64,000 nucleotides of DNA, taken from NCBI GenBank assembly GCA_033286805.1, contig GCA_033286805.1_4727.1, one strand, 5' to 3'. The stretch's first letter is position 1, and each line of letters opens with the position of its first letter. The stretch is from a phage. The translations under genes were made by a program, and so were the position numbers. The notes beneath the pieces are model-generated. The model made no database searches and was not told the origin of the DNA. It saw only the letters and a program-made list of their open reading frames with translations. This document shows, in pieces, positions 5,212-49,974 of the stretch.

Positions 5212-5739
5212 TTATACCCAATAGTCGGCAAGCGGTTTTACCTTATTAATGGGCAACTGTACTTTACCGATGTTCTCTACATCCGCATCAGCGTAGAGAA
5301 CAATTTTATCATCGTCTCTTTCCCAACGAATAATAAATCGACCAGGAAGAAGATTACTCTGTTCAAGAGACGCAGTAACCTGCTGCGTCAAAACAGACAA
5401 CCAAGCAGGCATCAATGTTGCAATATCTAAGTCATTTGACCACTCAGCACGTTGCTCCACTGGACGTAACATACGTTCGACGGTGCGTTGAACCGTTGCG
5501 GTGATATAGCCTTTATCTTCGTCACTGATTGGATCAGGACGAGACACAAAACGTTCAGCAGGCTTGTGGGTAATATATTCATGCAAATCGATGAGTGGTG
5601 TTGTCATAGTACTCGCTCCATCAGAATGTAATTGGGTAACCCGTAGGGTTGTCTGCATGCTATTCAGAAGCGCAAAAGCGCCATAAACAACAACGATACC
5701 AAGTATAGCCAAAACAGAAATCATTAACGTGTATTGCAT
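5212..5739 (-). CDS. membrane protein (N-terminal TM helix)
   Basis: ATG 5739 with GGGGAG SD at 6 nt; TM segment LMISVLAILGIVVVYGAFALL. Confidence 0.5.
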   Translation of the reverse strand: MQYTLMISVLAILGIVVVYGAFALLNSMQTTLRVTQLHSDGASTMTTPLIDLHEYITHKPAERFVSRPDPISDEDKGYITATVQRTVERMLRPVEQRAEWSNDLDIATLMPAWLSVLTQQVTASLEQSNLLPGRFIIRWERDDDKIVLYADADVENIGKVQLPINKVKPLADYWV

Positions 5740-5840
5740 TGTCATCTCCCCTACATACGCATCTTGAAGATCGGTTAAAAACAACAAAAGAAAAAACGAT
5801 ATAAAGCAAGGTCCTCTGATATCAGAGGACCTTGGATCAA

Positions 5841-6497
5841 TTAGCTTGCAGCTTCTTCATTTGTATCAGGTTTGCTTCCCCCTAACAAACCGTCAAACAG
5901 ACCCGTATGTTTCAGGTAGAAGAGAGCGATAGCGCCCATTGCTGCTGCGCTCGTCGCCGTTAACGCAACCCCAGCACGATACTGCCATTTACGGTCAGGC
6001 TTTTGATCAAGAGCCATACGACGCATGTATTCAGCCTCTGCTTCATTCCGATGAATTTCGGATTCAGCCAAGCGGGCTAAGGTATCGCGGTCAAGGTTAT
6101 CATAACGTACGTTCATGGTGGTTTCCTCTTGTTTGGAAGTTGATTGCTTAGTGGATTCTTGGTCAACAGTCGTTTCAGATGGTTCAAACGGCTGGTTGTT
6201 CATTTTCTGATCTTTATTGGTCATGATAGACTCCTTCGATTTTTGAGATGAAATTGATTTAAACCATCGTGGATGGCGGTATTCAGTTTTACATGTGCAG
6301 TTAAGTTTCTCGTGCAGGAAAGCGTAAAAACGTTTTGCGCCTACACGTAAGGCTTTCAGCATTACCCATCCACGAGCACTCAAACGGTGTAGCTGTTGCG
6401 GTATGTCTAGTTTCCTAGCCAAGCGAAAGTATCTTTCAATCACTTCGATAGGAAACCATTGTTGTTCCACATCGGTGAGACTGAAAGTCTTATCCAT
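5841..6497 (-). CDS. hypothetical protein with C-terminal TM helix
   Basis: First ORF downstream of promoter box at 6522-6545; C-terminal hydrophobic segment GVALTATSAAAMGAIALFYL. Confidence 0.5.
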   Translation of the reverse strand: MDKTFSLTDVEQQWFPIEVIERYFRLARKLDIPQQLHRLSARGWVMLKALRVGAKRFYAFLHEKLNCTCKTEYRHPRWFKSISSQKSKESIMTNKDQKMNNQPFEPSETTVDQESTKQSTSKQEETTMNVRYDNLDRDTLARLAESEIHRNEAEAEYMRRMALDQKPDRKWQYRAGVALTATSAAAMGAIALFYLKHTGLFDGLLGGSKPDTNEEAAS

Positions 6498-6521
6498 GAA
6501 TGAAATCTCGCTGGCTTACTT

Positions 6522-6545
6522 CACTTAAGTAATATAGCCGTGAAA
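6522..6545 (-). promoter_or_regulatory. conserved 24-bp promoter-like box, copy a
   Basis: Plus reading CACTTAAGTAATATAGCCGTGAAA; minus reading TTTCACGGCTATATTACTTAAGTG; 25 nt upstream of ATG of 5841-6497(-). Confidence 0.55.
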
Positions 6546-6647
6546 AATGTTGGAATAAGTTAAATACCGCAACCGCAGCTAATTTTATAGGCTTTTAGCC
6601 TAAACCAATCATCTTCGGAATCATCATCTTTGAAACAGGAATCTATC

Positions 6648-7469
6648 ATGGAAAAAGTATTTGTTTGTAAGCTGTTTACCAACGGCAATAGCCAACCAAT
6701 GTACCTGACCGATCCAGTTCTAGGTAATCGGAACAGCACCGTATTCAAAGAAGCTTTCGAATACGCTAAAAATAAAGCCGTGAGAACACTGACGTCCGAT
6801 GACTGTATCAACGGTATCACGTGGGCGGAGTTATTCGGTGATGCTGTTAGACACTTCGTTCGGGACGCAAGAAAACGGGAAATCTGTCTCACGACTATCG
6901 TTGTGCGTGAAAATGCAGAAATTTTATCAAACGTTTTGGTTGATTTTAATGACGTTTGCGTGTTTAATCCAGAGAACACGTTTGAACAATATCTTACTGC
7001 CCTGAACAACCAGCTCGGTAAAGATATTCATCCCGAATTCGCCAAGTTAACATATCAGTTACTTTTTGACGACGTCGATCCAAATACGAAGATCGATACC
7101 AGCTTATCGCCCCTGGTAAAGAAATACGGATCGGTTCTCGCTACGGCAACACCCACCACCGATGGCGGTTATGATATCGAATTGGATGGTCCATTAAAAG
7201 AACAAGAGCCTACTGGGGTTAGGGCGGTACATCACAACCTCGTCGTTAAATCTGATGGGTGCGATGAACATTACGCTATGATAAACGATGAAAACAATTA
7301 CCGTTTAAGTCAAGCGATTGGTGTTCTACGCTATACCGAACCCACTGTTGTAGACGATTATACATCGACAACAACGCACACCACGTGTTTCATTTTCATC
7401 TATCCCAATGAAAGTGTGTACATTACTGACTGCTACGGCAATACCGTAGATAGCTTACGTCGTTACTAA
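6648..7469 (+). CDS. hypothetical protein
   Basis: ATG 6648 with AGGA SD 7 nt upstream; followed by TTCG-loop terminator at 7476. Confidence 0.55.
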   Translation: MEKVFVCKLFTNGNSQPMYLTDPVLGNRNSTVFKEAFEYAKNKAVRTLTSDDCINGITWAELFGDAVRHFVRDARKREICLTTIVVRENAEILSNVLVDFNDVCVFNPENTFEQYLTALNNQLGKDIHPEFAKLTYQLLFDDVDPNTKIDTSLSPLVKKYGSVLATATPTTDGGYDIELDGPLKEQEPTGVRAVHHNLVVKSDGCDEHYAMINDENNYRLSQAIGVLRYTEPTVVDDYTSTTTHTTCFIFIYPNESVYITDCYGNTVDSLRRY

Positions 7470-7475
7470 TCGTCG

Positions 7476-7508
7476 AGCCTGTCCTTCGGGGCAGGCTTTT
7501 ATGCTGTT
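7476..7508 (+). terminator. intrinsic terminator, TTCG-tetraloop family (T1)
   Basis: agcctgtcc-ttcg-gggcaggct then TTTTATGCTGTTA; directly after stop of 6648-7469. Confidence 0.75.
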
Positions 7509-7577
7509 AAATATCAGGAATAAGAATTAACAAAATAGGAAAATGGTGTGAATATAACACAAAGGAGGGAGATGATC

Positions 7578-7694
7578 ATGTTACTCATTTTAATGGAGAG
7601 AGCATTGCTGGCGGGTATCTGCGCATTCTCTGTTAAACACGCTGTTGCTATCATGGCTGAAGAAAGGCGTAATACGCATAATGTATTACGCTGA
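7578..7694 (+). CDS. small hydrophobic peptide (38 aa; MLLILMERALLAGICAFSVKHAVAIMAEERRNTHNVLR)
   Basis: Not in ORF track (<60 aa). Strong SD AAGGAGGG 8 nt upstream of ATG 7578; hydrophobic N-terminal half. Confidence 0.3.
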   Translation: MLLILMERALLAGICAFSVKHAVAIMAEERRNTHNVLR

Positions 7695-7711
7695 AAACAC
7701 TGTGTGCATTA

Positions 7712-8113
7712 GTGTATGACGAGAAATCGTCGAGGCCCCCGTCTTCACGAGGGCCAACACCTATGCATGATTATTCATCGTCTGTTAAACAAAAGGTTAT
7801 AAACATGAGCAATTTGAACGTTGAATTTACTTCAACAACGCCTGTCATGAATGGTGTTGGCACTGAAACCAAAATCGTATTAGAACCCATTCCAGGGTTA
7901 CGCGATCTCGGTGATTTTTATCCACTGATGCCGCGTATACGGAAGGCCTTAAACAGTATCGATCTTGATTCCAATAAAGATTTCCAACACGATACAGAAA
8001 ATACCGATCATGTATTGCTGCCATCAGGGATCGCAAAATTCACCTACACGCAAACATTGAAAGCCTCCGATGGTGAAATCCGTCGTTTTATCGTTGAAGT
8101 AGAAAGCGCATAA
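7712..8113 (+). CDS. hypothetical protein (start uncertain; alternative ATG at 7805)
   Basis: ORF ending just before hairpin 8119-8148; no motif recognised. Confidence 0.45.
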   Translation: MYDEKSSRPPSSRGPTPMHDYSSSVKQKVINMSNLNVEFTSTTPVMNGVGTETKIVLEPIPGLRDLGDFYPLMPRIRKALNSIDLDSNKDFQHDTENTDHVLLPSGIAKFTYTQTLKASDGEIRRFIVEVESA

Positions 8114-38083: not shown

Positions 38084-40993
38084 ATGAACGATATAAATAA
38101 AGGGCGCGTCGCCCTCGAACGTCAAATGAGCAATAATGACGTTGCGAAGGCACTCATGAACAAATTTGTCGCTCCTGCTCCGCAGTCACGTCTTTATAAT
38201 ACACGTGATGCGGAAGGAGCGAACGGTCGTTTCGGGTTAGTTGTTCCCGACCAAATGACGATGAACACGGTTACGCGTGCGACCGCGACAAACATCGAGG
38301 ATAATAAAAACATCCTCGAGTTGTTCCCTGAACTTAAACGCGTGATGCAGATCTATGTTGCCGCGTTGACGAACCCTAACGATCTTAAGACGGTCGAGAT
38401 GTTTATCGACAGCGAAGATTTCCCCGGCAGAGTCGCAGAAATCGTTCAGCCGATGATCGATACCATCGACACGCATTTTAAGAATATCTATAAAATAAAG
38501 ACGCTTATCCCTCGTATCATCGAAGACGTCTTCTTTATCAAGGGCAGTTATAACTTCGTTGTTCTGCCGGAAAGCACGCTCGACCGCGCCATTAATGGTA
38601 ACGGTCAACTGAAACTTGAAGAATACGGATTTAAAGACAACCATTTTGCAAGCTGGGGACTTTTAGGTAACGACAGTCGCAAACGCCACGAAAATCAACT
38701 ACCCGCGACGGTTTCGATGGAAGATTATTTCTCGGGTGTTAATGAAACCATACCGTACGATCCTGTTGTTCGCATAGACAGCATTAAGTTTACCAATACC
38801 CTGCTTCGCGATAAGGACGGTAAATTCATTGAAGCGAAGATCGATATTCCGGATATGGTTACGGTTGTCGATAACCCAGACATCCTCCGCATGCCTATTC
38901 TGCATCAACGTCGAGCAGCGACAGCAGTGCAGCGTGCGTTACGCGCAAACACGTTAGGAGGTAGTGGTTTGGTAACGCTGTCAGGCGATCCGACCCTAAC
39001 CGCTAACCGACGTGAGCTGTCGCAAGAACAGGTTAACGAGATCTGGAATAAACTCAACATCCAACGTCACACCAAGGTATCTCCCGTTTACGCGCTGGCA
39101 ACCCCAGATACACTCGATCGTCAAAGCGTCGGTCATCCTGGTGTGATGCACGTACCACCTGAGGCATTAGAACCCGTACATGCGCCTGGCGATCCGGAGA
39201 ACCATATCGGGTATTTGGTTCAGTTGGATGAGTTTGGTTATCCGGTGCGTTTGGTTGAAGATGCTGCGTATTACAAGCAGTTGGAAGGGCGGTTGTCGAA
39301 GATCACCGCAGATATCGCAGGTACGTCAAGCAACGGCATGGCGAGCGAGATGATTGGTGCGGCCAAGAACATGATCCAAGGTACGTCATGTAATCAGGTA
39401 GACATGTCGGCCTTCGTATCGTCGTACGAATCGCTGATGCAACGTTACATCGTTGAACGTATTGTCAACGGTTATCTTGGCAGTGCGGTGGAAATCGGCG
39501 CGACATCATCGTTTTACCTATCGATGCTTGCCCGTAGCCTCGCTCATAAGCAGACCCGTGTTTTGTTTATTCCTCGAGAGATGGTGACTTACATCGCTTA
39601 TGAATACAACAAATACGGTATCGGTCGTTCGCTGCTTGAAAGTACGAAGATGATCTCGTCGCAACGAGCCATGCTCATGGTTCAAGAACTGATGGCGAAA
39701 ATCAAAAGTTCGTTGAACTATACGACGCTAAGCGTAATGCTTGAAGACACCGACAGAAACCCGGTCGATACCGTCGAACAAGCGCTGCATAGTTTCGCTC
39801 GTGTCTACCAGTCTGGTTTCCCTCTGGGTGAAACTAACCCGATGGATATCATCAACGCGTACGAACGAAGCTCGATTCGATTGAAGGTTGAGGGGAATAA
39901 CCCACGCTTCCCGAAATTGAATACAGACGTCAGTGTTGAGCAGCGTAACTATCAGTCTCCTGATAATGAGCTGATGGATCGTTACCGCCGTGACCATTTC
40001 ATGGGTTTGGGAGTTTCTCCAGAGATTATCGATACTTCCTACCAATCTGAATTCGCAGCTTCTGTGATTACAGCTAACGCGATGCAAGAGAAACAGTTCA
40101 CGGTTTGTCGTGAGGTGATCACGAATGGGTTATCGGACCACATCAAGAAATACACGGCATACAGTCCCGTGTTGTTGACGTCGTTACGAAACACGGTTCG
40201 TGCGAACATGTCTAAGCTCTCCCAGGCACAATTGAAGCAGCTTTTTGGTAGCGATTTCGAAAACGGTGTTATCCGTAACGTTAACGCCTATCAGGAGATT
40301 GACGACCAATCAGCAACAATGGATCTGGATTACACTAAACCAGAAGTCCAGGAAGTTATTGCCGATGCTTATGTGTCCATGTTCTTAAACAGCCTGCGTG
40401 TGCGTTTACCGGATAGCAATGCTCGTCGCCTTGAAGATCAGGTACGTGAATATAATCAGTACAAGGAAGCGATTACTGCGCAACTTGATGATTATTTAAC
40501 ACCTGATTACGTCATGGGTCTGGGTGGGGTTGATGAAACAACGCTGCAGATGATCCGCGCATGCATTATTGGTACCGCGATGCGTACGTGGGCAAAAGAG
40601 AACAACTTCAATCAGGAGCTGGCTGATCTCTTCAGTCTTGACGATAAGAAGAATGCCGTGCAAGATTGGAAACGTATGTCCATGGAACATATTGAAGTCA
40701 TGGGTAAATGCATGGGTGATTTTGCATTGTATATTCAGAATCTGACGAAGAAGATTGAAGAGAAGATGGGAGCTCAAGCACAGGACGGCAGCGTTTCATC
40801 TGATGGTTCGTGGTCATCCGATTCAAGTAGCGATACCGGTTCTTCTGATGACTTCGGTGGCGATGACGATTTCGGAGATACCGATTTCGATACCGAAACG
40901 ATGGAGGAAACCTCAACAGAAGAAACAACCACATCTGAGGAAACGACTACCGACACAACGTCAGAAGACGACACTTCAGGTGGCGTTGTCTAA
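38084..40993 (+). CDS. large hypothetical protein (969 aa) with acidic S/T/D/E-rich C-terminal tail
   Basis: ATG 38084 with AAGGAG SD; C-terminal 80 aa low-complexity acidic tail; followed by hairpin 41034-41067. Confidence 0.65.
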   Translation: MNDINKGRVALERQMSNNDVAKALMNKFVAPAPQSRLYNTRDAEGANGRFGLVVPDQMTMNTVTRATATNIEDNKNILELFPELKRVMQIYVAALTNPNDLKTVEMFIDSEDFPGRVAEIVQPMIDTIDTHFKNIYKIKTLIPRIIEDVFFIKGSYNFVVLPESTLDRAINGNGQLKLEEYGFKDNHFASWGLLGNDSRKRHENQLPATVSMEDYFSGVNETIPYDPVVRIDSIKFTNTLLRDKDGKFIEAKIDIPDMVTVVDNPDILRMPILHQRRAATAVQRALRANTLGGSGLVTLSGDPTLTANRRELSQEQVNEIWNKLNIQRHTKVSPVYALATPDTLDRQSVGHPGVMHVPPEALEPVHAPGDPENHIGYLVQLDEFGYPVRLVEDAAYYKQLEGRLSKITADIAGTSSNGMASEMIGAAKNMIQGTSCNQVDMSAFVSSYESLMQRYIVERIVNGYLGSAVEIGATSSFYLSMLARSLAHKQTRVLFIPREMVTYIAYEYNKYGIGRSLLESTKMISSQRAMLMVQELMAKIKSSLNYTTLSVMLEDTDRNPVDTVEQALHSFARVYQSGFPLGETNPMDIINAYERSSIRLKVEGNNPRFPKLNTDVSVEQRNYQSPDNELMDRYRRDHFMGLGVSPEIIDTSYQSEFAASVITANAMQEKQFTVCREVITNGLSDHIKKYTAYSPVLLTSLRNTVRANMSKLSQAQLKQLFGSDFENGVIRNVNAYQEIDDQSATMDLDYTKPEVQEVIADAYVSMFLNSLRVRLPDSNARRLEDQVREYNQYKEAITAQLDDYLTPDYVMGLGGVDETTLQMIRACIIGTAMRTWAKENNFNQELADLFSLDDKKNAVQDWKRMSMEHIEVMGKCMGDFALYIQNLTKKIEEKMGAQAQDGSVSSDGSWSSDSSSDTGSSDDFGGDDDFGDTDFDTETMEETSTEETTTSEETTTDTTSEDDTSGGVV

Positions 40994-41074: not shown

Positions 41075-41350
41075 TTATCTCGAGGTTAACCACGATTCAA
41101 TTGTGGTGAGGTTGCTTCGCAATACGCGCCAACTAGGGTGTGGTGGGATCACAGCACCTTGGTCGATTACGGTTAGCTGAGCCTGGTACTTCTGTTGCAT
41201 ACGGGCTACCGTAGCGTTTACCGAAAGGAAAAGCTGGTAACGTTCGTACGCCGTCAGTACAGCATCCATTTGGATTGCTTCGGTTGCTAAAACGATTTCG
41301 CGTAAGTCCTTTGCGTCCATCGGGACAGTAATGAGTTTATAATGACTCAT
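41075..41350 (-). CDS. hypothetical protein (91 aa)
   Basis: Small ORF ending at hairpin 41034-41067. Confidence 0.45.
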   Translation of the reverse strand: MSHYKLITVPMDAKDLREIVLATEAIQMDAVLTAYERYQLFLSVNATVARMQQKYQAQLTVIDQGAVIPPHPSWRVLRSNLTTIESWLTSR

Positions 41351-41399: not shown

Positions 41400-43958
41400 T
41401 TACTGTTCGTCGCGTTCCAACAGATACTCGGAAGCGGTAATACCGTTTACCGTACGTACTGCTTTCAGACGAGTATCATCACTCAGAATCACGGTAACAG
41501 ATTGCAGACCTTTTACTTTGGTTTCGAAGGTCTTGAACACCTGATCCAGCATACGAGCAATGCTTGGGTTGGTTGCAGCCGATGCGTGGGTGTAACCGCT
41601 TTGGTTCAGCTTCAGAATCTTGGCGTTGGTCGGTACGCGAACAACAACATGCGGACGCATCGCGAACACGCTATGATTAAACCAGTAAGCATCGTTGCTA
41701 TCTTCGTCGGTAACGATGTCTGGATTAACACGCATATCCTCGACAGCCGCATCCGCCAAACGCCGTTCGATTTCGTCAGCATCCAGAGAGCCATCTTTCT
41801 CCAGTTCTGCACGATACTCACTCATGGCAACCAGATGACGTTCACGATTCGCAGCGGATTTTTCGTGAGCTGCTTTCAGGTAGTCATGCATGTTGTACAG
41901 TTCAGCCATGGAAAGACGAATGTTCCACTGACCTTCGCCATCACGATTGCAGTAGAGGCACTTCAGCATGTTGACCCAGGTATAGTAGCAATTGGAGAAT
42001 TCATCTTCAATGAACTTCTGGTCCATTTTAAGATCGTGAATCAGCCAACCGGACAGTTCTCCGATATCATCAACGAAGCTAGAGATGGTGGTTTCAGAGA
42101 AGTTCTTCGGTACGATACGTTTGATCAGCTTGTTAACGTCTTTGGTCATGCTATCGTTCAGGAAATGCCAGATACGCAGAGGAATGACATCTCGATACTG
42201 TTGCATGATCTGACGATAAGCTTTGATATCGTCGCTACGACCTTTATCAATAGACAACGCATCCAGGAATTCATGGATTGCATCCAGCTCTTTGTCGGTA
42301 TAGGTTCCCAGATAGGAATTGACGGTGGCCAGGAATGCTAATGCGTCGTTTTGGTTGACGTCGGTGTTGGTCTGCTGAATGATCGCTACTGAAGCTTTGG
42401 TTTCAGCATCCTCAACGCTTGACGCTGCGATCGCATCGGTGACGGTAAACAGTTTCATTTCGCGCTGCTCACCGACAACGATTGGCTCACGCTGAACCGG
42501 CTTGTTAAGGCTAACACGAACAACTTCTGCTTGCGCGATACGATCCAGTTTTGCCATTTCCTGCTCTGCCATACGACGAGCGGTTGGATCTGATTCAAGT
42601 TCGATGTATTCCACTTCTTCCTCCGTGAGGGATGTAATGTCAACAATGGTTTCATGAAGAATTCCGTTTTCGTCGATACGTGCTCGACGAGCGAAGTGCC
42701 TGAAGTCATACAACGTCGGCCAACGACTATTAGGTGCAAAGTCTTTGGCTTTCAGACGCATCTGCATAAATTCTTCATGTTGAACAACACGACCGTAACG
42801 CTTAGCATCTTCGGTCGCATCAATTGGATTAACGGTCTTTGTTGCCGTAGCGGAACGAGCCGTACGAACCGGTTCCGGTTTCACCTGCGCAGGTTCAGGT
42901 TGAACGGGTTTCTGCTGCCCAGCCTTAACATGCCATTCTGGCTCTTCGTACTGTTCAGCAAATTGCTCGGCCGCTGCAAAGATATCGTTGATACCACCAA
43001 TATCTCCTTCAGGATTTGTCGAATATACTCGTGGTTGCGGTGCCTCGTAACGCGGCGCTGCGGTAGCAGGCGCGGCATCAACGATAGGATCATCATCACC
43101 AACATCATACAAACGGTTGAACGCACAATCCTTCGAATCAATGTACGATGGTGTTTGTGGTTGGACAACCGTAGGTCGAGGTTGTGTGCCGTATCCTGGT
43201 GTTGTTGGAGCCATACCACGCATAACTGCAGGACTAGGTTGGTATTGCGGTTGTGGGTAGGTTCCACCATACATGGCGTACGCAGGCTGTTGTGGTTGAC
43301 CATACCCGTTGCTAACCATCGCACTTGCTTGCGGCCCACGATAAGTCATCCCCATCTGCATCACCTGCTGCTTCAAACCACGTGACTTCTGAGCGATTTG
43401 CGCTAGGCTTCCGCTTTTATTCAGCTGCGTGTACTTGTTCGCGGCTTCCGGGTTAATGCGTGATAATTCAATCGCGCGATAATATTCCGGGTACTGATTA
43501 GGTTCAAAGAGCCACGTTACAAGATGATACAGCGCAACTGTGCTCACAGCAGCAGAGACGATCTGGTCGTCGGACGCGTTCTGTGGCATCGGGTTGATGT
43601 AAGAGAACACGTTCCAACAACAGTCTTCAACAAGCGATTCCATCATCATATCGTTATTGGTATAACGTGCGACGAACTCGGTTTGTATTTTGTCTTGCTG
43701 AGCGAAGTCTTTCAGGACATTAAAGATGGCTTGACGGATTTTGACGATCGTCGCTTCTTGGGTGATGAAGTTATAGTTCTGCTGATATGAGGGTTGTTGG
43801 TATTGTGGTGGTTGATAGGCGTTATTCGGATATGCACCGTACGGCGATTGCTGATACTGCTGCTGACGAACCTGTTCAGCCGCATAATTAATCGTGCTCG
43901 CATAAGGGTTTTCGCTATAGCCCATTTGCTGATACATGTTGTTACTGCCATTATACAT
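41400..43958 (-). CDS. large protein with Gln/Tyr/Pro-rich low-complexity regions (852 aa)
   Basis: N-terminal ~65 aa and an internal ~70 aa segment are Q/Y/P/G-rich (YQQ, PQYQQPSYQQNY, GYGQPQQPAY). Confidence 0.65.
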   Translation of the reverse strand: MYNGSNNMYQQMGYSENPYASTINYAAEQVRQQQYQQSPYGAYPNNAYQPPQYQQPSYQQNYNFITQEATIVKIRQAIFNVLKDFAQQDKIQTEFVARYTNNDMMMESLVEDCCWNVFSYINPMPQNASDDQIVSAAVSTVALYHLVTWLFEPNQYPEYYRAIELSRINPEAANKYTQLNKSGSLAQIAQKSRGLKQQVMQMGMTYRGPQASAMVSNGYGQPQQPAYAMYGGTYPQPQYQPSPAVMRGMAPTTPGYGTQPRPTVVQPQTPSYIDSKDCAFNRLYDVGDDDPIVDAAPATAAPRYEAPQPRVYSTNPEGDIGGINDIFAAAEQFAEQYEEPEWHVKAGQQKPVQPEPAQVKPEPVRTARSATATKTVNPIDATEDAKRYGRVVQHEEFMQMRLKAKDFAPNSRWPTLYDFRHFARRARIDENGILHETIVDITSLTEEEVEYIELESDPTARRMAEQEMAKLDRIAQAEVVRVSLNKPVQREPIVVGEQREMKLFTVTDAIAASSVEDAETKASVAIIQQTNTDVNQNDALAFLATVNSYLGTYTDKELDAIHEFLDALSIDKGRSDDIKAYRQIMQQYRDVIPLRIWHFLNDSMTKDVNKLIKRIVPKNFSETTISSFVDDIGELSGWLIHDLKMDQKFIEDEFSNCYYTWVNMLKCLYCNRDGEGQWNIRLSMAELYNMHDYLKAAHEKSAANRERHLVAMSEYRAELEKDGSLDADEIERRLADAAVEDMRVNPDIVTDEDSNDAYWFNHSVFAMRPHVVVRVPTNAKILKLNQSGYTHASAATNPSIARMLDQVFKTFETKVKGLQSVTVILSDDTRLKAVRTVNGITASEYLLERDEQ

Positions 43959-43992: not shown

Positions 43993-45792
43993 TCAATCGA
44001 TTATGTCACGATCGTTAATTTCTACAATTTCTTCATCGAATCGACCGACGTCTTTCTTCAAGCCTGCATTGGTTGCTGCAACGTCATTTGCAATTTGTGG
44101 GGTAATGATTAACCGACCACGTTCGTCGATAGGTGCGTACATACTGAACTTTTGACGTCCGGTTGGTTCGGAGTGTGGAAGATTCAGATAGCTTGCACAG
44201 AACGGGATGGAACCACTAACCAAACGACTCTCGTCAGCCAATGCAGCACCGCCTGCGTTTTGGCTCTGGAGAACAACATGCGTGCTCACTTTGAACAGCA
44301 TGCAATCACCCGGTGACTGAATCGATGTTGCCACTTTCTCACGTTTATCACGATTGCTCTGGATATTGAGAATCGCTTCCGTTGCAACTTGATTTCGCAA
44401 CGCCTTCTGCACATCGCGATTGGTCATCTCTTTACGGTTGTTCTGTCGTTTGCCACGTTCTGTGGTTTTAAGATGGAACCCCAGTTTAAAGATGCTTTTA
44501 CGCACATCCTCCATGACATATTCCAACACCATCAATTCCTTACCGAACATCGTCGTGGTGTCAACACGACTCATTTCGATAGTAACATTGTCAATCAGAT
44601 ACGCCATAAATTCGTAGAAGTCGTCGCAAGGAATATTTTCCTGTTTGAACTTCTTCTGTTGAATTTCGTCAACGTAAAGATCGAGACTGTCGATGTGGTG
44701 GTTTACATCACGCAACAAACGCGCATCCGCATTGTTGTTATTAAAGATAATCAAACCGAGTAATGTACGCCAATGGTCTGGCGCATTTGCGAACTCCTCA
44801 ACCGGATAGTCTTCCGGAAAACGATCGTAATAACGGTCGATGAGATATAGGAACGCACCGACAAGGCCAAGAACAATACGTTCCGTGCCTCCACGTCTTA
44901 CAGCAATTTGAATATCAGGATGTTTGTAACGTACAGCGCTAGCGCTACGGCTTTTACCGCTTTTGCTGATACTAAAGCCTTTAGGAATAACCCCCATGGT
45001 GCGATAGATTACCCATTGGTCACGCGGAAAATCACGTTCAGCAAGGTTCCGTCCGGTTACGGCTTCGACACCTGCAAAACGTCGGAAACACTCACCCACC
45101 CCGTACTTCGCAAAGAGATAGTGACCCAGTGTGGTTACGCTGGTGTGGTTGATGTTGTCACCGTTCACTTTACTTTGTTTGGTAAGATGATAGATTTGCG
45201 ACCAGGGTAATGACAGGTAATGACGATAATCGATACCGGTCGGTGTATCATTGCTCAGGAACTGATACGGTGTACGTTTAACCGTGATTTTATCACGCGG
45301 AAGCATGATGAACGCCATGTCTTTCGTGTAACTGATTACGGGGTCAGCGAGTACCGCACTGAGAATGAAGTTCGCACCACGTAGACGCATTTTACCACCC
45401 TGACCTACCGCGGGTAATAGGAGAGGATGTCGGATAATGCAGTAGTCCTTTCCGGGTTCACGACGGTCGCCTGATTCCATCGCGCCGTACCAGCGGAATT
45501 CCAGCATCACCATAAACACATCGGAAGGCGCAAGGTCGAAGGTCAGCTTACCGCTATCCTTCCCTTTGGTTTTCTTTCCTCCGCTTAAGTAGTGGAACTG
45601 TTCGCGGGCCATACAGCGACGCAGGCCATGATACACCAGATCCTTAGGTAAACTATCTTTGCTGTTCCGCCAAAGACGATCAACATAGGACTCAACATCT
45701 TGCATCTTATCGACGACGATGTTGCGTGCTATCTTCTCGTTCATCTTCGGTGCAAGCTCAGCGACAGCTTTGCAGAATCTAGGATCCATCAC
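43993..45792 (-). CDS. hypothetical protein (599 aa)
   Basis: Long ORF on dominant strand; no motif recognised. Confidence 0.6.
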   Translation of the reverse strand: MMDPRFCKAVAELAPKMNEKIARNIVVDKMQDVESYVDRLWRNSKDSLPKDLVYHGLRRCMAREQFHYLSGGKKTKGKDSGKLTFDLAPSDVFMVMLEFRWYGAMESGDRREPGKDYCIIRHPLLLPAVGQGGKMRLRGANFILSAVLADPVISYTKDMAFIMLPRDKITVKRTPYQFLSNDTPTGIDYRHYLSLPWSQIYHLTKQSKVNGDNINHTSVTTLGHYLFAKYGVGECFRRFAGVEAVTGRNLAERDFPRDQWVIYRTMGVIPKGFSISKSGKSRSASAVRYKHPDIQIAVRRGGTERIVLGLVGAFLYLIDRYYDRFPEDYPVEEFANAPDHWRTLLGLIIFNNNNADARLLRDVNHHIDSLDLYVDEIQQKKFKQENIPCDDFYEFMAYLIDNVTIEMSRVDTTTMFGKELMVLEYVMEDVRKSIFKLGFHLKTTERGKRQNNRKEMTNRDVQKALRNQVATEAILNIQSNRDKREKVATSIQSPGDCMLFKVSTHVVLQSQNAGGAALADESRLVSGSIPFCASYLNLPHSEPTGRQKFSMYAPIDERGRLIITPQIANDVAATNAGLKKDVGRFDEEIVEINDRDIID

Positions 45793-45828: not shown

Positions 45829-47271
45829 TTACTTTTTCGATGACGCTTTCTCAAGAATCTTGAAAAAGGTCATACCTATACCGACAACAGCCGCGGTTAT
45901 GCTTGCAGCGGCTTTCCAAACATCGACGTTACGTTGACGTCGCGCTTCTTCCGCTTCACGTTGTCTTTTTGCCTCTTCATCACGTCGACGTATCTCAGCA
46001 GCAAACTCGTCGTGCTTACGTTTGGATTCTTCGTCTCGACGACGAAGTTCAGCGACGAATTCTTCATGTTTGCGTTTAGCCTCGTCATCACGACGTTTTA
46101 AATCAGCTTGATAATCTTCGTGTATTTGTTTACGTAGATCATCTTGACGCTTCATTTCGGCTTGGTGTTGTTCCATCCTACGTTTTTGTTCGTCTTTAAG
46201 CTGATCGAGTTCGGCTTTATGTTGTTCATCACGCAGCTTTGCGTCGGCGCGATGCGCCTCATGCATCTGTGCGATAACTGCCTTGTGTTCATCCGCCATA
46301 CGTCGCATTTCAGCCATCACCCCTTTAAGGGTTTCTTCTGATGCCTTACGTTCGTAGCTACGTTGGTCGAAATCATTTTTGTAGGCTTCTTTTTGGATGG
46401 GGTCGCGCCAATGTAATGCCGATTCACGTGTCGGAAAAACATTGTACTTCCACATCTCTTTTTCCAAATCTTCGACCGGTACGAAGATGGAGTCATTATT
46501 ACCGAAGGTAACCAACATACCTGGCGCACCTGCTCCATTCGTTGGTTTTATTTCGAACGCTTTCCCCAGCACGTTAACCCATAAGCTATACGGATTATGA
46601 AAGTCGGGTGGCGTCCAATGGATAGTGAGTTGCGTTCCGAGAATCCGGAAACCCTCTGTTTTTCCCGTCAAGCTCCGCGCGCACGTTGCGATGTAGGGGT
46701 GATCAATCCCTTTCGTAACGTGGTCTGCGCTTTTGTATTCTCCTTTAACTTTTACGATTGCCACGTTGATTTGCGCGACATAAGCGGGTTGATTAAAGTT
46801 CAGCGTGTTGAGGTCAATTTGACATATTTCATCCAGCGTATCGTACCAGTCTTGCTGGTCTAATAGACGCGGCATTTTCTCTGTGTTAACAATACGACGG
46901 ATATGCGGTTTCCTTATCGCGTAACCTGTGCCGTTTTTAACACGGAGTATATCCCGACGTCTACCCGCGTAGACGAAGTTTCTGAATGCACCATTCGCAT
47001 TAGATACGTCATGGCTGTCAACTATTACAGGACTACGAAATTTTGAACGTCGTACGATCCTGAATGTATTGCCGTCCTCAACCCTACCAGGAATGTACTG
47101 GAACATATTGTCGGAGGTGATAACCAACACGGTATGGCCAGATTCATTAATACATGCCCATCCTAATTCCAGGTCATATAACGGTTCGGCATAACCGTCA
47201 ATGCGATATGCGTGCGTACCATCCCACGGTTCGAACGCGGTATCACATATTGGCATGGAGGGCATCGTCAA
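45829..47271 (-). CDS. membrane-anchored protein with tandem charged 18-aa repeats and C-terminal TM helix
   Basis: First ORF after promoter box 47416-47439; C-terminal repeats RRRDEE[AS]KRKH[ED]EF[AV]AE[IL] then TM segment ITAAVVGIGMTFF. Confidence 0.6.
   Translation of the reverse strand: MTMPSMPICDTAFEPWDGTHAYRIDGYAEPLYDLELGWACINESGHTVLVITSDNMFQYIPGRVEDGNTFRIVRRSKFRSPVIVDSHDVSNANGAFRNFVYAGRRRDILRVKNGTGYAIRKPHIRRIVNTEKMPRLLDQQDWYDTLDEICQIDLNTLNFNQPAYVAQINVAIVKVKGEYKSADHVTKGIDHPYIATCARSLTGKTEGFRILGTQLTIHWTPPDFHNPYSLWVNVLGKAFEIKPTNGAGAPGMLVTFGNNDSIFVPVEDLEKEMWKYNVFPTRESALHWRDPIQKEAYKNDFDQRSYERKASEETLKGVMAEMRRMADEHKAVIAQMHEAHRADAKLRDEQHKAELDQLKDEQKRRMEQHQAEMKRQDDLRKQIHEDYQADLKRRDDEAKRKHEEFVAELRRRDEESKRKHDEFAAEIRRRDEEAKRQREAEEARRQRNVDVWKAAASITAAVVGIGMTFFKILEKASSKK
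45940..46110 (-). repeat. coding tandem repeat (~54 bp x 3) encoding RRRDEE[AS]KRKH[ED]EF[AV]AE[IL]
   Basis: Repeated DNA units ...cgacgacgaagttcagcgacgaattcttcatgtttgcgttt... within 45829-47271. Confidence 0.6.
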
Positions 47272-47503: not shown

Positions 47504-47602
47504 CTGACTTATGTATCACGGTGCCGGATGAATGTCCGGTGCAATGAAACCATCCGCAACGTTGTCGTCAAGAATATCATCCAACGAAGCAGCTACGGTA
47601 GT

Positions 47603-49825
47603 TCAGTTAGTCTGAACCGGCAGCTTGATGTTTTCAGTGTAGACCTTACGCAGGTTCACAACGTTAATCAGACCCAGCAGCGGGCAGTTGTTAACGAAGC
47701 GGCAGCGCGGCTGAACCATGGTTTCTTTAGAAACCTGACCGTTACGGGTAACCTGAGCAACAGATACCAGTTCCGGTACATACAGGAACATACCGAAGGT
47801 CAGCGGATCCGGAGAACCCTGGATACCACGAGACAGGGTCACGAAGATCTTATCGCGCAGCATGACGTTCGGGTTATCTACAACCACGAAGTTGAAGCTT
47901 ACACCAACGGTACGGAAATCGCCATCGGTCTGCAGGAACTGCGGGATGTAGTTGTCAGTTGCTACTACGCAACGCGGTTTCTCATCAGCGTTGGAAGACA
48001 GCAGCTGCAGAGCTGGCTGATAACCAGACTCAGAGTACATGCGGTATGCCATTTCACGAATCACGTTCATGATCGCAGCAGACACTTCAGCACGACGTTC
48101 TGCGGTGGTGGTACCCTGAACAGATTTCTCCAGGTCCAGGTTGATTTCTTCGAACCACGGACGGATCAGGTAACGACCGAAACCTTCGATCTGGATGTCA
48201 CCGAACTGACGGAAGCGAGAGGTCGCAACCGCTTTCAGTGCGTCTTTGTAGCTGAACAGTTTCTCAACCATCAGGTTGTCGAAACGTGCGTTAGCAGCTT
48301 GGATCAGAACGTCCAGGTCAGCAGCGTTTTCTTCCCAATCCAGCGGACGAGGAATGGAGAACGGAGCCAGCAGGCCGATTGCGTAACGTTCTTGCTTCAT
48401 GTTGAAGTCAAGGTGCTTACCGCGCTCACGACGGTTGCTGTTGTTACGGCGGATACGCAGTTCGTAACCAACCAGTTTGAAGCTCAGGTCTTCAGCCAGT
48501 TGTTTGAACTCTTCGCTCTTACGCGGTTGTTCGATGTTGTCCTGATCAACCAGGCGATACAGTTCAGCGTTAGCGCCGTTAACACGCAGACCCGCTTTCT
48601 CTACGTTGGAAGAACCGTAAACTTCGATCGCCAGCTGAGCAGCAGATTTCGCATCGATGATGTCCTGCAGCGCTTCAGCTTTCGCACCTTTAACGTCTTT
48701 GGTGTTCTCATCAACGAAGATGGAGTGAGTGTCGAACGCCAGGGTCATTTTGCGGAAGTCGCCTTCCAGGGATTTCTGGAAACCGTTGGTGATCAGACCA
48801 GATACGTCGAACGGTACGTAAGAGGTTTTGCTGTGCTTGGTAGATTTGATTTCCACCAGGATTTTGGTCAGCGTGATCTGGGCGTCCAGCGCGTCGGTGT
48901 TGTCGCTGTAACCGTTAGCCAGGATGCTATCGTCTTCAGCGATACCGATCATGTCGATCAGTTTATCAACAGCCAGGTAAGACGTTTTATAAGTTACGCC
49001 TTTAATTTCGATGTCACGCGGAGCAACGATAGTTTTGTCAACGAAGTACTGCGCGTTAGCATCGTCAGCACGATAGATCGGATGCAGATCGGTCACGTCG
49101 TTGGACAGAACGTCGTTGTACATGAACGCATCCAGCAGCGGACGACGTACCCAATCAGCCGGAGTACCGTCAGCGTTACGACGCAGGTGGTTGAACACCA
49201 GCGGACGACGGAAAGATACATCATAACCGATCTGGTTCGGAGCCAGAACGATGGTGTTGTACAGTTCGTTACCCATGCGGCTCAGACGAGAAGCCTTCAC
49301 GTTGAACACAACGGAGTACGGCATCATGTCACGCAGTTCTTTCTGGTCGTAGGACAGCTGAACCAGTTCTTCAGATTCGCAACCGCAGGAATCAGCAGCC
49401 ATCATGACGAAGTTAGAGCTATCGACTTCACGGCCAGACGGAGTGGTGCTGATGTTCATGGAACGTGCTTGTTTAGCATATTCCACCGGGTTGCCATGAG
49501 CCAGCATGATCAGTGCTGCTGCACGAGCCTGCTGTGCGTTCATGGTGAACAGCTGTTCTTCAATACGCTGCTTCTCTTCCGGAGTGGTGGTTTCGAAGCC
49601 CAGCATGGACAGAACCGGTTCTTCGGCTTTACGGATGTCGCTGCTGAAGCTCTTAACATCCATTTCGTTAACCAGTTTGTCCATGGATTTGAAATCAACC
49701 TTAGAAGCAGATTCCATAGACAGGAAGGTGTTCTCCAGACCTTTGTCTGCTGGTTTGCTACCATTAGCGGTCAGGAACTGGCGAGTGGCCGCGACCTGTT
49801 GGCTAAGAAGGGTTTTATCATTCAT
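47603..49825 (-). CDS. major virion structural protein (740 aa); major capsid or tail sheath candidate
   Basis: Strongest codon bias in window (CTG, CCG, CGT, GGT, AAC, TTC preferred); antisense frame stop-free for 766 codons; followed by hairpin 47474-47503. Confidence 0.75.
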   Translation of the reverse strand: MNDKTLLSQQVAATRQFLTANGSKPADKGLENTFLSMESASKVDFKSMDKLVNEMDVKSFSSDIRKAEEPVLSMLGFETTTPEEKQRIEEQLFTMNAQQARAAALIMLAHGNPVEYAKQARSMNISTTPSGREVDSSNFVMMAADSCGCESEELVQLSYDQKELRDMMPYSVVFNVKASRLSRMGNELYNTIVLAPNQIGYDVSFRRPLVFNHLRRNADGTPADWVRRPLLDAFMYNDVLSNDVTDLHPIYRADDANAQYFVDKTIVAPRDIEIKGVTYKTSYLAVDKLIDMIGIAEDDSILANGYSDNTDALDAQITLTKILVEIKSTKHSKTSYVPFDVSGLITNGFQKSLEGDFRKMTLAFDTHSIFVDENTKDVKGAKAEALQDIIDAKSAAQLAIEVYGSSNVEKAGLRVNGANAELYRLVDQDNIEQPRKSEEFKQLAEDLSFKLVGYELRIRRNNSNRRERGKHLDFNMKQERYAIGLLAPFSIPRPLDWEENAADLDVLIQAANARFDNLMVEKLFSYKDALKAVATSRFRQFGDIQIEGFGRYLIRPWFEEINLDLEKSVQGTTTAERRAEVSAAIMNVIREMAYRMYSESGYQPALQLLSSNADEKPRCVVATDNYIPQFLQTDGDFRTVGVSFNFVVVDNPNVMLRDKIFVTLSRGIQGSPDPLTFGMFLYVPELVSVAQVTRNGQVSKETMVQPRCRFVNNCPLLGLINVVNLRKVYTENIKLPVQTN

Positions 49826-49974
49826 TGAAAGTATCCTTTACAGAATTAACTTATATAAGTCGGTCGATAGACCATAGCGTACACGCGTGCATGCGCCACT
49901 ATAGTATCAGTAAACACTTACCGTTGTTTAGGCTGTGATACAACACTAAAAATGCCGCATAACTTTTCCCTACG

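Follow-up and report, generated by a model that had tools for sequence, protein, structure and literature searches.

A divergent Goslar-type JADA protein with disordered Gln/Tyr/Pro-rich tracts in a jumbo phage genome

The 852-residue protein encoded at 41400..43958 of the window (the whole 64,000-nucleotide stretch of phage DNA analysed here) is almost certainly a JADA orthologue, a member of the phiKZ gp124 / RAY gp4 family in its Goslar-lineage version, and its two Gln/Tyr/Pro-rich tracts are very probably both disordered and selectively maintained. As an overall account, a divergent JADA carrying disordered, interaction-prone tracts is the explanation we hold to be probable; on the narrower point of whether the tracts mediate interactions, and do not only provide spacing, we consider the case evenly balanced. 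The window is 97.8% identical in nucleotide sequence to phage Goslar, in which the ORF corresponds to Goslar_00038 (HOV27_gp038), and we use Goslar gene numbers throughout; the gp38 proteins of phiKZ and T4 carry the same label and are different proteins.

JADA belongs to the core proteins of nucleus-forming jumbo phages; it is essential, early and abundant, is suspected of a role in transcription, and is also the trigger of the bacterial immune sensor Avs5 (a Sir2 NADase). The characterised orthologue is that of the Pseudomonas phage Pa36, gp316: on its own in uninfected cells it is diffuse, and the purified protein is a soluble dimer, yet on infection it moves from a diffuse state to foci at early-phage-infection (EPI) vesicles. 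Its C-domain is a rigid homodimer that alone suffices for toxicity and Avs5 activation, and its linker does not show in the cryo-EM map. The C-domain homodimer, the EPI-vesicle foci and the activation of Avs5 are properties shown for Pa36 gp316 only; the functional data all come from Pseudomonas phages or Goslar, none from the genome analysed here. The Goslar-type protein is a genuine JADA, though a very divergent one, an addition to a known family to which the tract feature also belongs, and it brings into that family an E. coli model phage for which genetics (CRISPRi-ART) and cryo-ET of EPI vesicles already exist. What our analysis further adds is the selection acting on the gp38 tracts and the two chemical flavours found across the family.

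Gene neighbourhood and family membership

The gene and its immediate neighbours are as follows.

45829..47271, minus strand: gp40, orthologue of phiKZ gp122, first gene of the early island
43993..45792, minus strand: gp39, non-virion RNA polymerase subunit (phiKZ gp123 homologue), upstream of gp38 across a 34-nt gap
41400..43958, minus strand: gp38, complete CDS with an ATG start, 852 aa, orthologue of Goslar gp38
41075..41350, minus strand: gp37, a small downstream ORF of 91 aa, last gene of the early island

JADA genes sit immediately after the gene for a non-virion RNA polymerase subunit, and gp38 occupies this same slot, directly behind the gp123 homologue and on the same strand. The polymerase assignment of gp39 comes from tblastn matches in 235 phage records, PHIKZ123 among them, and from phrog_2943 ('polymerase'). 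An HMM of the ORFs upstream of the RNA polymerase gene, built from 15 phages, matched gp40 alone in the window, and weakly (E 0.0026); at its C-terminus gp40 has an extra K/R/D/E-rich repeat region, and it ends in a hydrophobic helix. The order MCP, gp122-like gene, gp123 RNA polymerase, gp38-type gene and portal is found in phiKZ, Eowyn, RAY, PCH45, 201phi2-1 and 10 others, and the MCP-to-portal order also in the metagenomic relative P0005. In the orthology table of core genes in Prichard 2023, HOV27_gp038 shares a column with PHIKZ124 and RAY gp004, with gp040 aligned to PHIKZ122 and gp039 to PHIKZ123.

The expression class is likewise that of JADA. When ChmA is knocked down in Goslar, published RNA-seq gives log2 fold changes of +0.7 to +1.2 for gp037-040 (+0.8 to +1.2 for gp038 itself) and of -4 to -6.8 for gp035, 036, 041 and 042; with the nucleus blocked, the flanking portal, baseplate, MCP and vertex genes drop by 4-7 log2 units, and gp038 read counts lie above those of the MCP gene. 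In Goslar, gp37-40 are an island of early, nucleus-independent transcription set among late genes. The original prediction had placed the ORF among large structural-like genes, a placement that we correct: gp38 follows a non-virion RNA polymerase gene and belongs to the early class, the late genes being those that flank the island, and it does not belong to a structural module. A scan for sigma-70 promoters and intrinsic terminators found fewer sites than in shuffles and carries no information here, as these phages transcribe with RNA polymerases of their own.

The homology itself is carried by the C-domain. An HMM built from the C-domains only of 15 non-Goslar orthologues, with no Goslar-type sequence included, and run under HMMER --max, found gp38 as its sole match in the 163 ORFs of the window, at 22.9 bits and E 2.7e-6 where the best of 1000 shuffles scored 6.6 bits; the match is colinear over residues 412-835. 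The same HMM reaches the intermediate P0005 at E 2.8e-15, and hhalign comparison of C-domain profiles gives 98.3-98.5% probability (E ~1e-14, 334 columns). Searched with Foldseek against 350,542 PDB chains, the C-domain model found only 9rp3_B and 9rp3_A at E <=1e-3, the top match having E 1.3e-4 and probability 1.00 with a TM-score of only 0.2 and a model pLDDT of 55; global fold identity with 9RP3 is not demonstrated, because the AF2 models are poor and the TM-score is 0.2. We used the C-domain model for Foldseek ranking only, with no superposition, and the full-length model (pLDDT 38) was unusable. A phmmer search of PDB sequences with the single C-domain sequence did not reach 9RP3, the phiKZ gp124 control being positive. 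In sequence gp38 is only 10-17% identical to other JADA orthologues, and its N-domain has no significant similarity to theirs (hhalign probability 2.6%, P 0.017, in a colinear alignment). No PHROGs family matches gp38, and Pfam returned nothing beyond a sub-threshold Cas9_C_2 match (residues 731-791, 18.6 bits against a cut-off of 27), which we take as chance.

In tblastn against 50,697 phage records the C-domain matched Goslar and nothing else; of the clusters that an exhaustive HMMER search with the C-domain retrieved from 1.84 billion representatives, two are real, P0002 and P0005, whereas P0006 was rejected as a spurious repeat protein. Word-indexed protein searches gave 4 close relatives with full gp38, where matches are saturated by low-complexity words, and 4 proteins with a 16-sequence C-domain alignment.

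Composition, disorder and selection of the tracts

Within gp38 a Q/Y-rich N-terminal tract precedes a helical N-domain, which is followed by a Q/P/G/Y tract with an acidic A/P-rich segment, and then by the C-domain.

43770..43958, minus strand: low-complexity tract 1, residues 1-63, a Q/Y/N/P-rich N-terminal extension whose length varies among relatives
43374..43769, minus strand: N-terminal helical domain, residues 64-195, from predicted helices
43167..43373, minus strand: low-complexity tract 2, residues 196-264, Q/P/G/Y/M-rich and nearly charge-free, opening the inter-domain linker
42804..43166, minus strand: second part of the linker, residues 265-385, A/P/D/E-rich, net charge -11
42933..42992, minus strand: acidic amphipathic helix in the linker, residues 323-342 (INDIFAAAEQFAEQYEEPEW), helix predicted at 324-335
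41403..42803, minus strand: C-terminal domain, residues 386-852, a homologue of the dimeric C-domain of JADA (PDB 9RP3)

An N-domain, a long disordered linker and a homologous C-domain of ~450 residues are common to gp38 and JADA/phiKZ gp124 (in Pa36 gp316 the N-domain spans residues 1-170 and the linker 170-270). Relative to a 721-residue JADA orthologue gp38 is ~130 residues longer: it adds the 63-residue Q/Y-rich N-terminal tract, its linker zone is ~190 residues (196-385) as against ~100, and its C-domain carries a lineage-specific helical insertion of ~70 residues (~668-741) in which long helices are predicted.

The tracts had been predicted at about residues 1-65 and over some 70 internal residues, dominated by Q, Y, P and G, and both the boundaries and the composition hold up well. 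Residues 1-63, with PQYQQPSYQQNY inside residues 50-62, contain 22% Q, 19% Y, 14% N and 9.5% P; residues 196-264, with GYGQPQQPAYAMYGGTYPQPQYQP inside residues 218-241, contain 16% Q, 16% P (15.9%), 13% G, 10% Y and 10% M. The background, taken from the 55 other non-overlapping window ORFs of at least 100 aa, is 4.1% Q, 4.0% Y, 4.0% P, 5.9% G, 5.2% N and 2.5% M. In its best 60-residue window gp38 reaches 42 of 60 Q+Y+P+G+N residues (0.70), against 27 of 60 (0.45) in the runner-up ORF and a mean of 0.236 (sd 0.064) over all 16,751 such windows; none of 5000 residue shuffles of gp38 reached 42, the maximum being 33. Uncharged runs of 36 and 39 residues occur in the tracts. Tyrosine recurs about every 5 residues in tract 1, where successive Tyr/Phe gaps are 7, 5, 5, 6, 10, 5, 3, 5, 5, 5 and 4 residues (13, 8, 3, 4, 5 and 17 in tract 2), and GY dipeptides number 12 in gp38 as against 4.5 +/- 2.0 in shuffles, by a post-hoc test.

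These tracts are intrinsically disordered and lie on either side of the N-domain; the internal one starts the known JADA linker, and the N-terminal one is an extra element seen again in some lineages. Aliphatic and aromatic core residues make up less than 15% of residues 1-58 and 186-262, the regions where pLDDT is 20-38, and low hydrophobicity and disorder extend past tract 2 to about residue 385. In the full-length AF2 model the helices of residues 58-216 have the highest pLDDT, and residues 217-382 have low pLDDT and no regular structure save one helix. That helix motif, INDIFAAAEQFAEQYEEPEW, is kept in P0003, P0004, P0005 and P0009 even though overall identity is 34-39%, has no counterpart in other lineages, and is a candidate binding motif.

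Are the tracts an artefact of assembly, or absent from close relatives? Tandem Repeats Finder detected no DNA tandem repeats beneath them, and the Q, Y and P codons are mixed. Goslar (GenBank) has the tracts too, as do four independent metagenomic relatives that are 80-99% identical. They are also under purifying selection, with dN/dS values (0.14 for tract 1 and 0.11 for tract 2) like those of the folded domains (0.13 for the N-domain, 0.10 for the C-domain). Against P0004, tract 2 retains 83% amino-acid identity at a dS of 0.85 (dN/dS 0.11); against P0005 it is 33% identical, the N-domain only 21%. A GYGQPQQP motif in tract 2 is conserved across Goslar-type proteins. All gp38 indels are confined to tract 1, which shows an 11-residue expansion in P0003 and P0004 and is reduced to ~25 N/G/Q-rich residues in P0005 and P0009 (34-39% identity). 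In P0003 the second part of the linker has an intermediate dS of 0.43 and lies between a diverged N-half and a near-identical C-half, and residues 265-385 are, from this pattern, probably a recombination junction.

Across the family, low-complexity linkers have one of two flavours, the first uncharged (Q/N/Y/P/G/M) and the second charged (R/D/G). Tracts of at least 55% Q/Y/P/G/N in 30-residue windows occur in 12 of 17 positional orthologues, the remaining five having R/D/E/G/S-rich, RGG-like linkers; N-terminal low-complexity tracts occur in 7 of the 17. Because linker chemistry differs so radically between clades, no single composition is required. The claim that such composition is rare in phage proteins needs qualifying in the same light: gp38 is unique within the window, but linkers of this kind recur in the JADA family across Chimalliviridae. 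The text of the JADA paper makes no mention of low complexity, prions, phase separation or condensates.

Possible roles of the tracts

Could the tracts serve something other than an intracellular JADA? A low-copy virion-associated or ejected protein, with tracts serving packing or ejection, might be read from Goslar virion LC-MS/MS, in which gp038 has 26 peptides, 28% coverage and an estimated 17-39 (~25) copies per virion, ~180-fold above its operon neighbour gp039 (0.14), with gp037 at 0.8 and gp040 not found; the gene also lies between those for portal and MCP. Yet the same preparation holds the non-virion polymers chimallin (~126) and PhuZ (~170), and gp38 is missing from the 28 modelled virion proteins and from the abundant unmodelled ones discussed in that paper; nor does the original Goslar paper have it among its 10 gel-band proteins. 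In 201phi2-1 the 'virion protein by mass spectrometry' note stands with gp198 and gp200 but not with their neighbour gp204, the orthologue of gp38, the Churi orthologue is listed as non-structural, and the transcript is early and nucleus-independent where nearby virion-protein genes are late, so that we regard a virion role as improbable. Far less plausible still is a true prion or amyloid-type domain forming a self-propagating aggregate in infection, a reading we all but dismiss. The Q/N/Y-rich, charge-poor composition invites it, being similar to that of the yeast Sup35 N-domain repeats, but Q+N peaks at 26 per 80 residues (from residue 3), below the classical cut-off of at least 30 in 80 consecutive residues that Michelitsch and Weissman reportedly set in 2000; proline at 9.5-16% disfavours amyloid, the Pa36 orthologue is soluble, dimeric and diffuse alone, and loss-of-function aggregation fits poorly with an essential protein that is abundant early. 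The prion-like label given to the tracts thus survives as a description of composition, of the polar/aromatic class also seen in phase-separating low-complexity domains, and not as one of behaviour. Mimicry of a host disordered region is also very improbable: here GYGQPQQP ... LYDVGDDDPIV would imitate the linker and acidic tip of E. coli SSB, whose tail reads ...GQPQQPQGG...DFDDDIPF, and so engage host replication proteins. SSB partners recognise a free C-terminus, however, and the acidic motif is internal in gp38; [FY]D[VYF] following the linker is no more frequent among orthologues than chance would give, and a GQPQQP match is expected by chance in Q/P-rich sequence. Beyond the resemblance itself, phiKZ gp124 has been reported in host DnaX/FtsZ pull-downs (Van den Bossche 2014, as described in a citing paper), but sticky low-complexity proteins are frequent AP-MS contaminants.

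The more serious alternative, though one we still find unlikely, is that the tracts are passive entropic tethers of JADA in which only length and disorder are constrained, composition reflecting tolerance or drift. P/Q-rich linkers act as flexible tethers in bacterial division proteins, and several observations count against an active role: linker chemistry is radically different between clades (uncharged polar or highly charged), indels pile up in tract 1, the Pa36 linker is unseen by cryo-EM, the C-domain alone holds the known activities, and the orthologue is diffuse on its own in uninfected cells and a soluble dimer in vitro. Against mere tethering, position-specific conservation of tract 2 equals that of folded domains and at deep divergence is even higher than in the N-domain, the linker contains conserved motifs, GY dipeptides are in (post-hoc) excess, and all flavours are rich in the stickers Y, R, M, F and W, unlike the S/G/T/E/K of inert linkers. 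We posit instead that the tracts would be interaction-prone tethers: Tyr 'stickers' (Arg, Met, Phe or Trp in other lineages), together with the embedded motifs, may make weak multivalent contacts through which either the JADA dimer as a whole or its two N-domains could be concentrated at the EPI vesicle or the nascent nucleus, a step that would need an infection-specific partner. The Goslar system allows a test of whether disorder-mediated assembly belongs to the EPI-vesicle stage; if the tracts are inert, the outcome is a correctly annotated family member only.

A bolder possibility, which we hold to be a long shot, is that the low-complexity regions are the working part of JADA, the dimer nucleating, on the EPI vesicle or the nascent phage nucleus, a cohesive phase that is selectively permeable or rich in RNA. 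Such a phase would couple early transcription, mRNA exit, ribosome recruitment or genome hand-over to the nucleus, and the two linker flavours would match the condensate classes of eukaryotic RNA granules and FG-nucleoporins, the polar one Tyr/Met/Phe/Trp-studded and the other Arg/Asp/Gly-rich and RGG-like. If true, a bacterial virus would have its own analogue of a nuclear-pore or RNA-granule phase, and this would account for JADA being essential, very abundant at 10 min and focal only in infected cells, and also for its co-sedimentation with virions.

Likenesses to known low-complexity proteins

The tracts fit a sticker-and-spacer (FUS-like) pattern, with aromatics evenly spaced in a polar, uncharged spacer. 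The Sup35 N, FUS and hnRNPA1 PLDs likewise have polar Q/N/G/S/P spacers, even tyrosines, few charged or aliphatic residues and GY dipeptides; the gp38 tracts differ in being short (63 and 69 residues), proline-rich and below the Q/N threshold, and the likeness is one of composition only, in a protein whose orthologue is diffuse and soluble alone. Condensate behaviour has already been discussed for Chimalliviridae: ChmC, a nucleus-associated RNA-binding protein of chimalliviruses, is reported to phase-separate (NAR 2024, PMC11077065). Both ChmC and gp38 are Chimalliviridae-specific, non-virion and tied to gene expression, but they belong to unrelated families at different genomic positions, and condensation is measured for ChmC and hypothesised for JADA/gp38.

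In composition and in tethering, gp38 also resembles two E. coli proteins. The ZipA P/Q domain and the disordered linker of SSB are Q/P/G-rich tethers between folded modules, and the SSB linker promotes condensation. Unlike these, gp38 combines high Tyr and Met content with a second tract at its extreme N-terminus.

Gene neighbourhood and identity of gp38

The original prediction read the 852-residue protein as prion-like and rich in Q, Y and P, embedded among structural-like genes. Its gene, gp38, lies in the following neighbourhood:

38084-40993, strand opposite to gp38: portal, 969 aa (Goslar gp36, identified by cryo-EM)
41400..43958 (-): gp38, ATG start, 852 residues
43993-45792 (-): gp123 homologue, 599 aa, directly upstream of gp38 (PHIKZ123 homology, 235 phage records)
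45829-47271 (-): Goslar gp40 orthologue, first gene of the early island (phiKZ gp122 in an orthology table; weak HMM match, E 0.0026)
47603-49825 (-): phiKZ-type major capsid protein (MCP; PF25620, E 5e-218)

The gp38 gene shares 97.8% nucleotide identity with Goslar_00038 of Escherichia phage vB_EcoM_Goslar, a nucleus-forming jumbo phage (Chimalliviridae), where it is annotated as 'hypothetical protein'. The PHIKZ123 homologue beside it is a non-virion RNA polymerase (RNAP) subunit, and the gene directly after this homologue encodes 687-981 aa in 15 phages (phiKZ, Eowyn, RAY, PCH45, 201phi2-1, FLC4-4C, RTH11, FBKp24, Haymo, BONAISHI, Phabio, JM-2012, YC1, PS1 and Ea277G). The phiKZ protein, gp124, was recently named JADA via its Pa36 orthologue gp316 (Mol Cell 2026, PMC12931631); JADA forms foci at the early-phage-infection (EPI) vesicle and activates the Avs5 Sir2 NADase (PMC12931631). 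In an ASO screen, phage transcription at 30 min was strongly perturbed when PhiKZ124 or PhiKZ122 was depleted (PMC12571901). A published orthology table equates HOV27_gp038 with PHIKZ124 and RAY gp004, gp039 with PHIKZ123 and gp040 with PHIKZ122 (Prichard et al. 2023 supplement). The literature already covers the JADA family, with its genomic position and disordered linker, as well as the orthology of Goslar gp38.

In pairwise comparison the similarity is weak: E values in BLASTP are 1e-3 against phiKZ gp124 and 1e-4 against Eowyn gp146, with matches centred on I-x-x-F-x-D-[DI]-[GA]-[ED]-L-x-[GA]-[WY]-L, and a single-sequence phmmer search with the gp38 C-domain (residues 386-852) does not reach the JADA C-domain structure 9RP3, whereas the phiKZ gp124 control does. 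An HMM built on the last 460 residues of 15 non-Goslar orthologues was searched against the 163 six-frame ORFs of the window and 1000 shuffles; gp38 is the sole match in the window (22.9 bits, E 2.7e-6, colinear over residues 412-835), and the top shuffle reaches 6.6 bits (n=1000). The same HMM matches P0005, a metagenomic protein of 774 aa with 39% identity to the gp38 C-domain, at E 2.8e-15, and hhalign aligns the Goslar-type C-domains with the other orthologues over 334 columns (98.3-98.5% probability, E ~1e-14). The AF2 model of the C-domain is mediocre (pLDDT 55). Among 350,542 PDB chains, Foldseek returned only 9rp3_B and 9rp3_A at E <=1e-3 (E 1.3e-4, probability 1.00), the next-ranked chain standing at E 0.13, and TM-scores to 9rp3 are only 0.2; this ranking of a predicted model supports homology to 9RP3 but not a global superposition. 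The helical N-domain (residues 64-195) shows no similarity detectable by profile comparison to other JADA N-domains, and overall identity to other JADA orthologues is 10-17%. Relative to these, gp38 has a lengthened linker, an additional N-terminal tract of 63 residues and a ~70-residue helical insertion in the C-domain. We conclude that gp38 is an orthologue of JADA, though a very divergent one.

In published Goslar RNA-seq (ChmA knock-down versus control, 30 min), gp037-gp040 rise by 0.7 to 1.2 log2 units on knock-down, i.e. they belong to a nucleus-independent, early class, whereas gp035 (baseplate), gp036 (portal), gp041 (MCP) and gp042 (vertex complex) go down by 4 to 6.8 log2 units. gp38 does not belong to a structural operon. 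Reads for gp038 exceed those for the MCP gene. The transcript of this JADA orthologue is an early one, from the EPI-vesicle stage.

Is the protein nonetheless found in virions? Mass spectrometry (MS) of Goslar virions detected gp038 with 26 peptides, at an estimated ~25 (17-39) copies per virion, with values of 0.14 for gp039 and 0.8 for gp037, and gp040 not found (bioRxiv 10.64898/2026.04.21.720040, Table S4); gp038 stands ~180-fold over its operon neighbour gp039. The same preparation holds the non-virion polymers chimallin (~126) and PhuZ (~170), the 28-protein Goslar structural model does not include gp38, the 201phi2-1 orthologue lacks the virion-MS note present on its neighbours, and the orthologue in Churi is placed among the non-structural proteins. 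The signal is ambiguous: gp038 could be packaged, stuck to capsids, or part of a co-sedimenting large assembly.

Composition and constraint of the low-complexity tracts

Both peptides quoted in the original prediction occur in the gp38 translation, and composition and shuffles bear out the Q/Y/P/G-rich segments. Tract 1 (residues 1-63) contains Q 22%, Y 19%, N 14% and P 9.5%, and tract 2 (residues 196-264) Q 16%, P 16%, G 13%, Y 10% and M 10%, against a window background (the 55 remaining non-overlapping ORFs of 100 aa or more) of Q 4.1%, Y 4.0%, P 4.0%, G 5.9%, N 5.2% and M 2.5%. The densest 60-residue stretch of gp38 holds 42 Q/Y/P/G/N residues, versus 27 in the runner-up ORF of the window and a maximum of 33 in 5000 shuffles of gp38. 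An assembly artefact is contradicted by the mixed codon choice of the tracts, by the finding of no tandem DNA repeat beneath them, and by their presence in GenBank Goslar and four independent metagenomic relatives.

Tract 1 precedes the N-domain, and the JADA linker opens with tract 2; from there hydrophobicity stays low and predicted structure is absent as far as about residue 385, with one exception, listed here with a motif that follows tract 2:

42933-42992 (-), gp38 residues 323-342: acidic amphipathic helix, INDIFAAAEQFAEQYEEPEW, within the disordered linker
43106-43138 (-), gp38 residues 274-284...294: post-tract motif RLYDVGDDDP
phiKZ gp124 residue 249 (L002): post-tract motif AAYDVPGSSP
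201phi2-1 gp204 residue 241 (L006): post-tract motif SLYDVPVNEP

The helix is retained in P0005 and in a further relative, P0009 (…LYNLAERFAVEEEDPMW…), despite 34-39% overall identity, and is absent from the other lineages examined; it is a candidate partner-binding motif. The YDV-type motif follows low-complexity tracts no more often than expected by chance in the 19 proteins examined.

dN/dS by gp38 region, against P0004, a relative 82% identical (dS ~0.9)
Tract 1: 0.14
N-domain: 0.13
Tract 2: 0.11
Rest of linker: 0.11
C-domain: 0.10

With dN/dS of 0.10-0.14 in all regions, constraint on the tracts is as strong as on the folded domains: the disordered tracts of gp38 are selectively maintained. 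Compared with P0005, tract 2 retains 33% identity and the N-domain 21%; indels are confined to tract 1.

A further relative, P0003 (L020:1001-3589), is a mosaic when compared with window 41403-43958. Over the C-domain (residues 386-852) its protein sequence shows 100% identity to that of the window at dS 0.11, residues 1-264 diverge as in P0004 (dS 0.7-1.7), and linker residues 265-385 are intermediate (dS 0.43). This pattern of sequence divergence indicates a recombination junction within the disordered linker, which would give the N-module and C-domain separate histories. Between the window and the contig that carries P0005 (L018, 4195-8325), the RNAP subunit is 69% identical and JADA 34%, i.e. 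JADA evolves much faster than its co-transcribed neighbour, a difference compatible with relaxed constraint as well as with an arms race against sensors such as Avs5.

Photobacterium phage PDCC-1 (L011, 5700-8100) is an exception to the JADA position: five small ORFs (89-245 aa), and not a ~2.2 kb gene, follow its RNAP subunit gene, and the C-domain HMM finds no match among the six-frame ORFs of 5700-8100. JADA may have been lost, replaced or relocated in Aphroditevirus.

Linker flavours and the proposed role of the tracts

Taking at least 55% Q/Y/P/G/N residues in 30-aa windows as the definition of a tract, we find such tracts in 12 of 17 positional orthologues, reaching 188 residues with 27% Q in Eowyn. 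Their chemistry varies: M/Q/P/Y in RAY, G/N/W in RTH11, G/M/Q in JM-2012, and FG-like in Phabio ('FSGFGGGGSF'). The other five (PCH45, FLC4-4C, FBKp24, Haymo and Ea277G) carry R/D/E/G/S-rich, RGG/RD-like linkers of 120-165 residues, e.g. RRGYSRDDRGRGGFGRGPEHRGRYEDRD, as do P0007 and P0008. N-terminal low-complexity tracts occur in 7/17. In a neighbour-joining tree of the adjacent RNAP subunit, which carries no bootstrap support values, four charged-linker phages form one clade with FLC4-4C apart, which suggests that linker flavour has switched at least twice.

Of the prion-like reading, only the composition stands. gp38 peaks at 26 Q+N per 80 residues, where the classical Q/N-rich criterion is at least 30, and its tracts contain 9.5-16% proline. 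With one tyrosine per ~5 residues in tract 1, and 12 GY dipeptides in the uncharged linkers against 4.5 +/- 2.0 expected (a post-hoc test), the likeness is to FUS-type domains with their sticker-and-spacer pattern. Pa36 JADA is spread diffusely through uninfected cells and is soluble and dimeric on purification, and its C-domain alone suffices for toxicity and Avs5 activation (PMC12931631); autonomous aggregation is therefore disfavoured.

As the likeliest mechanism we infer that the gp38 tracts are interaction-prone tethers rather than inert spacers. They would lend the JADA dimer weak multivalent contacts, to itself or to a partner specific to infection, and so favour its accumulation at the EPI vesicle. 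The chief competing explanation, a tether that is purely passive, is favoured by linker chemistry that differs radically between clades. In a bolder and unlikely reading, the low-complexity regions of JADA would form a functional condensate at the EPI vesicle. The JADA paper (PMC12931631) makes no mention in its text of low complexity, prions, phase separation or condensates, and our literature search found linker composition, the two flavours, selection and the Goslar-specific N-terminal tract nowhere.

Other features of the window

A stop-free ORF of 766 aa (47528-49828, +) runs antisense to the entire major capsid gene and is probably a by-product of codon usage, not a gene. The portal C-terminus (~40780-40990, +) is a strongly acidic, S/D/T/E-rich tail of ~70 residues (…SSDGSWSSDSSSDTGSSDDFGGDDDFGDTDFDTETMEETSTEETTTSEETTTDTTSEDDTSGG), situated past the crown domain (residues 778-923) of the cryo-EM model; it is a second low-complexity region in the window, unlike those of gp38 in kind. 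Towards its C-terminus the gp40 orthologue has an additional stretch of near-repeats rich in K/R/D/E (…RRRDEEAKRKHEEF / RRRDEESKRKHDEF…) and, at its terminus, a hydrophobic helix (VWKAAASITAAVVGIGMTFFKIL); conceivably, gp40 is anchored in the membrane of the EPI vesicle and partners JADA there.
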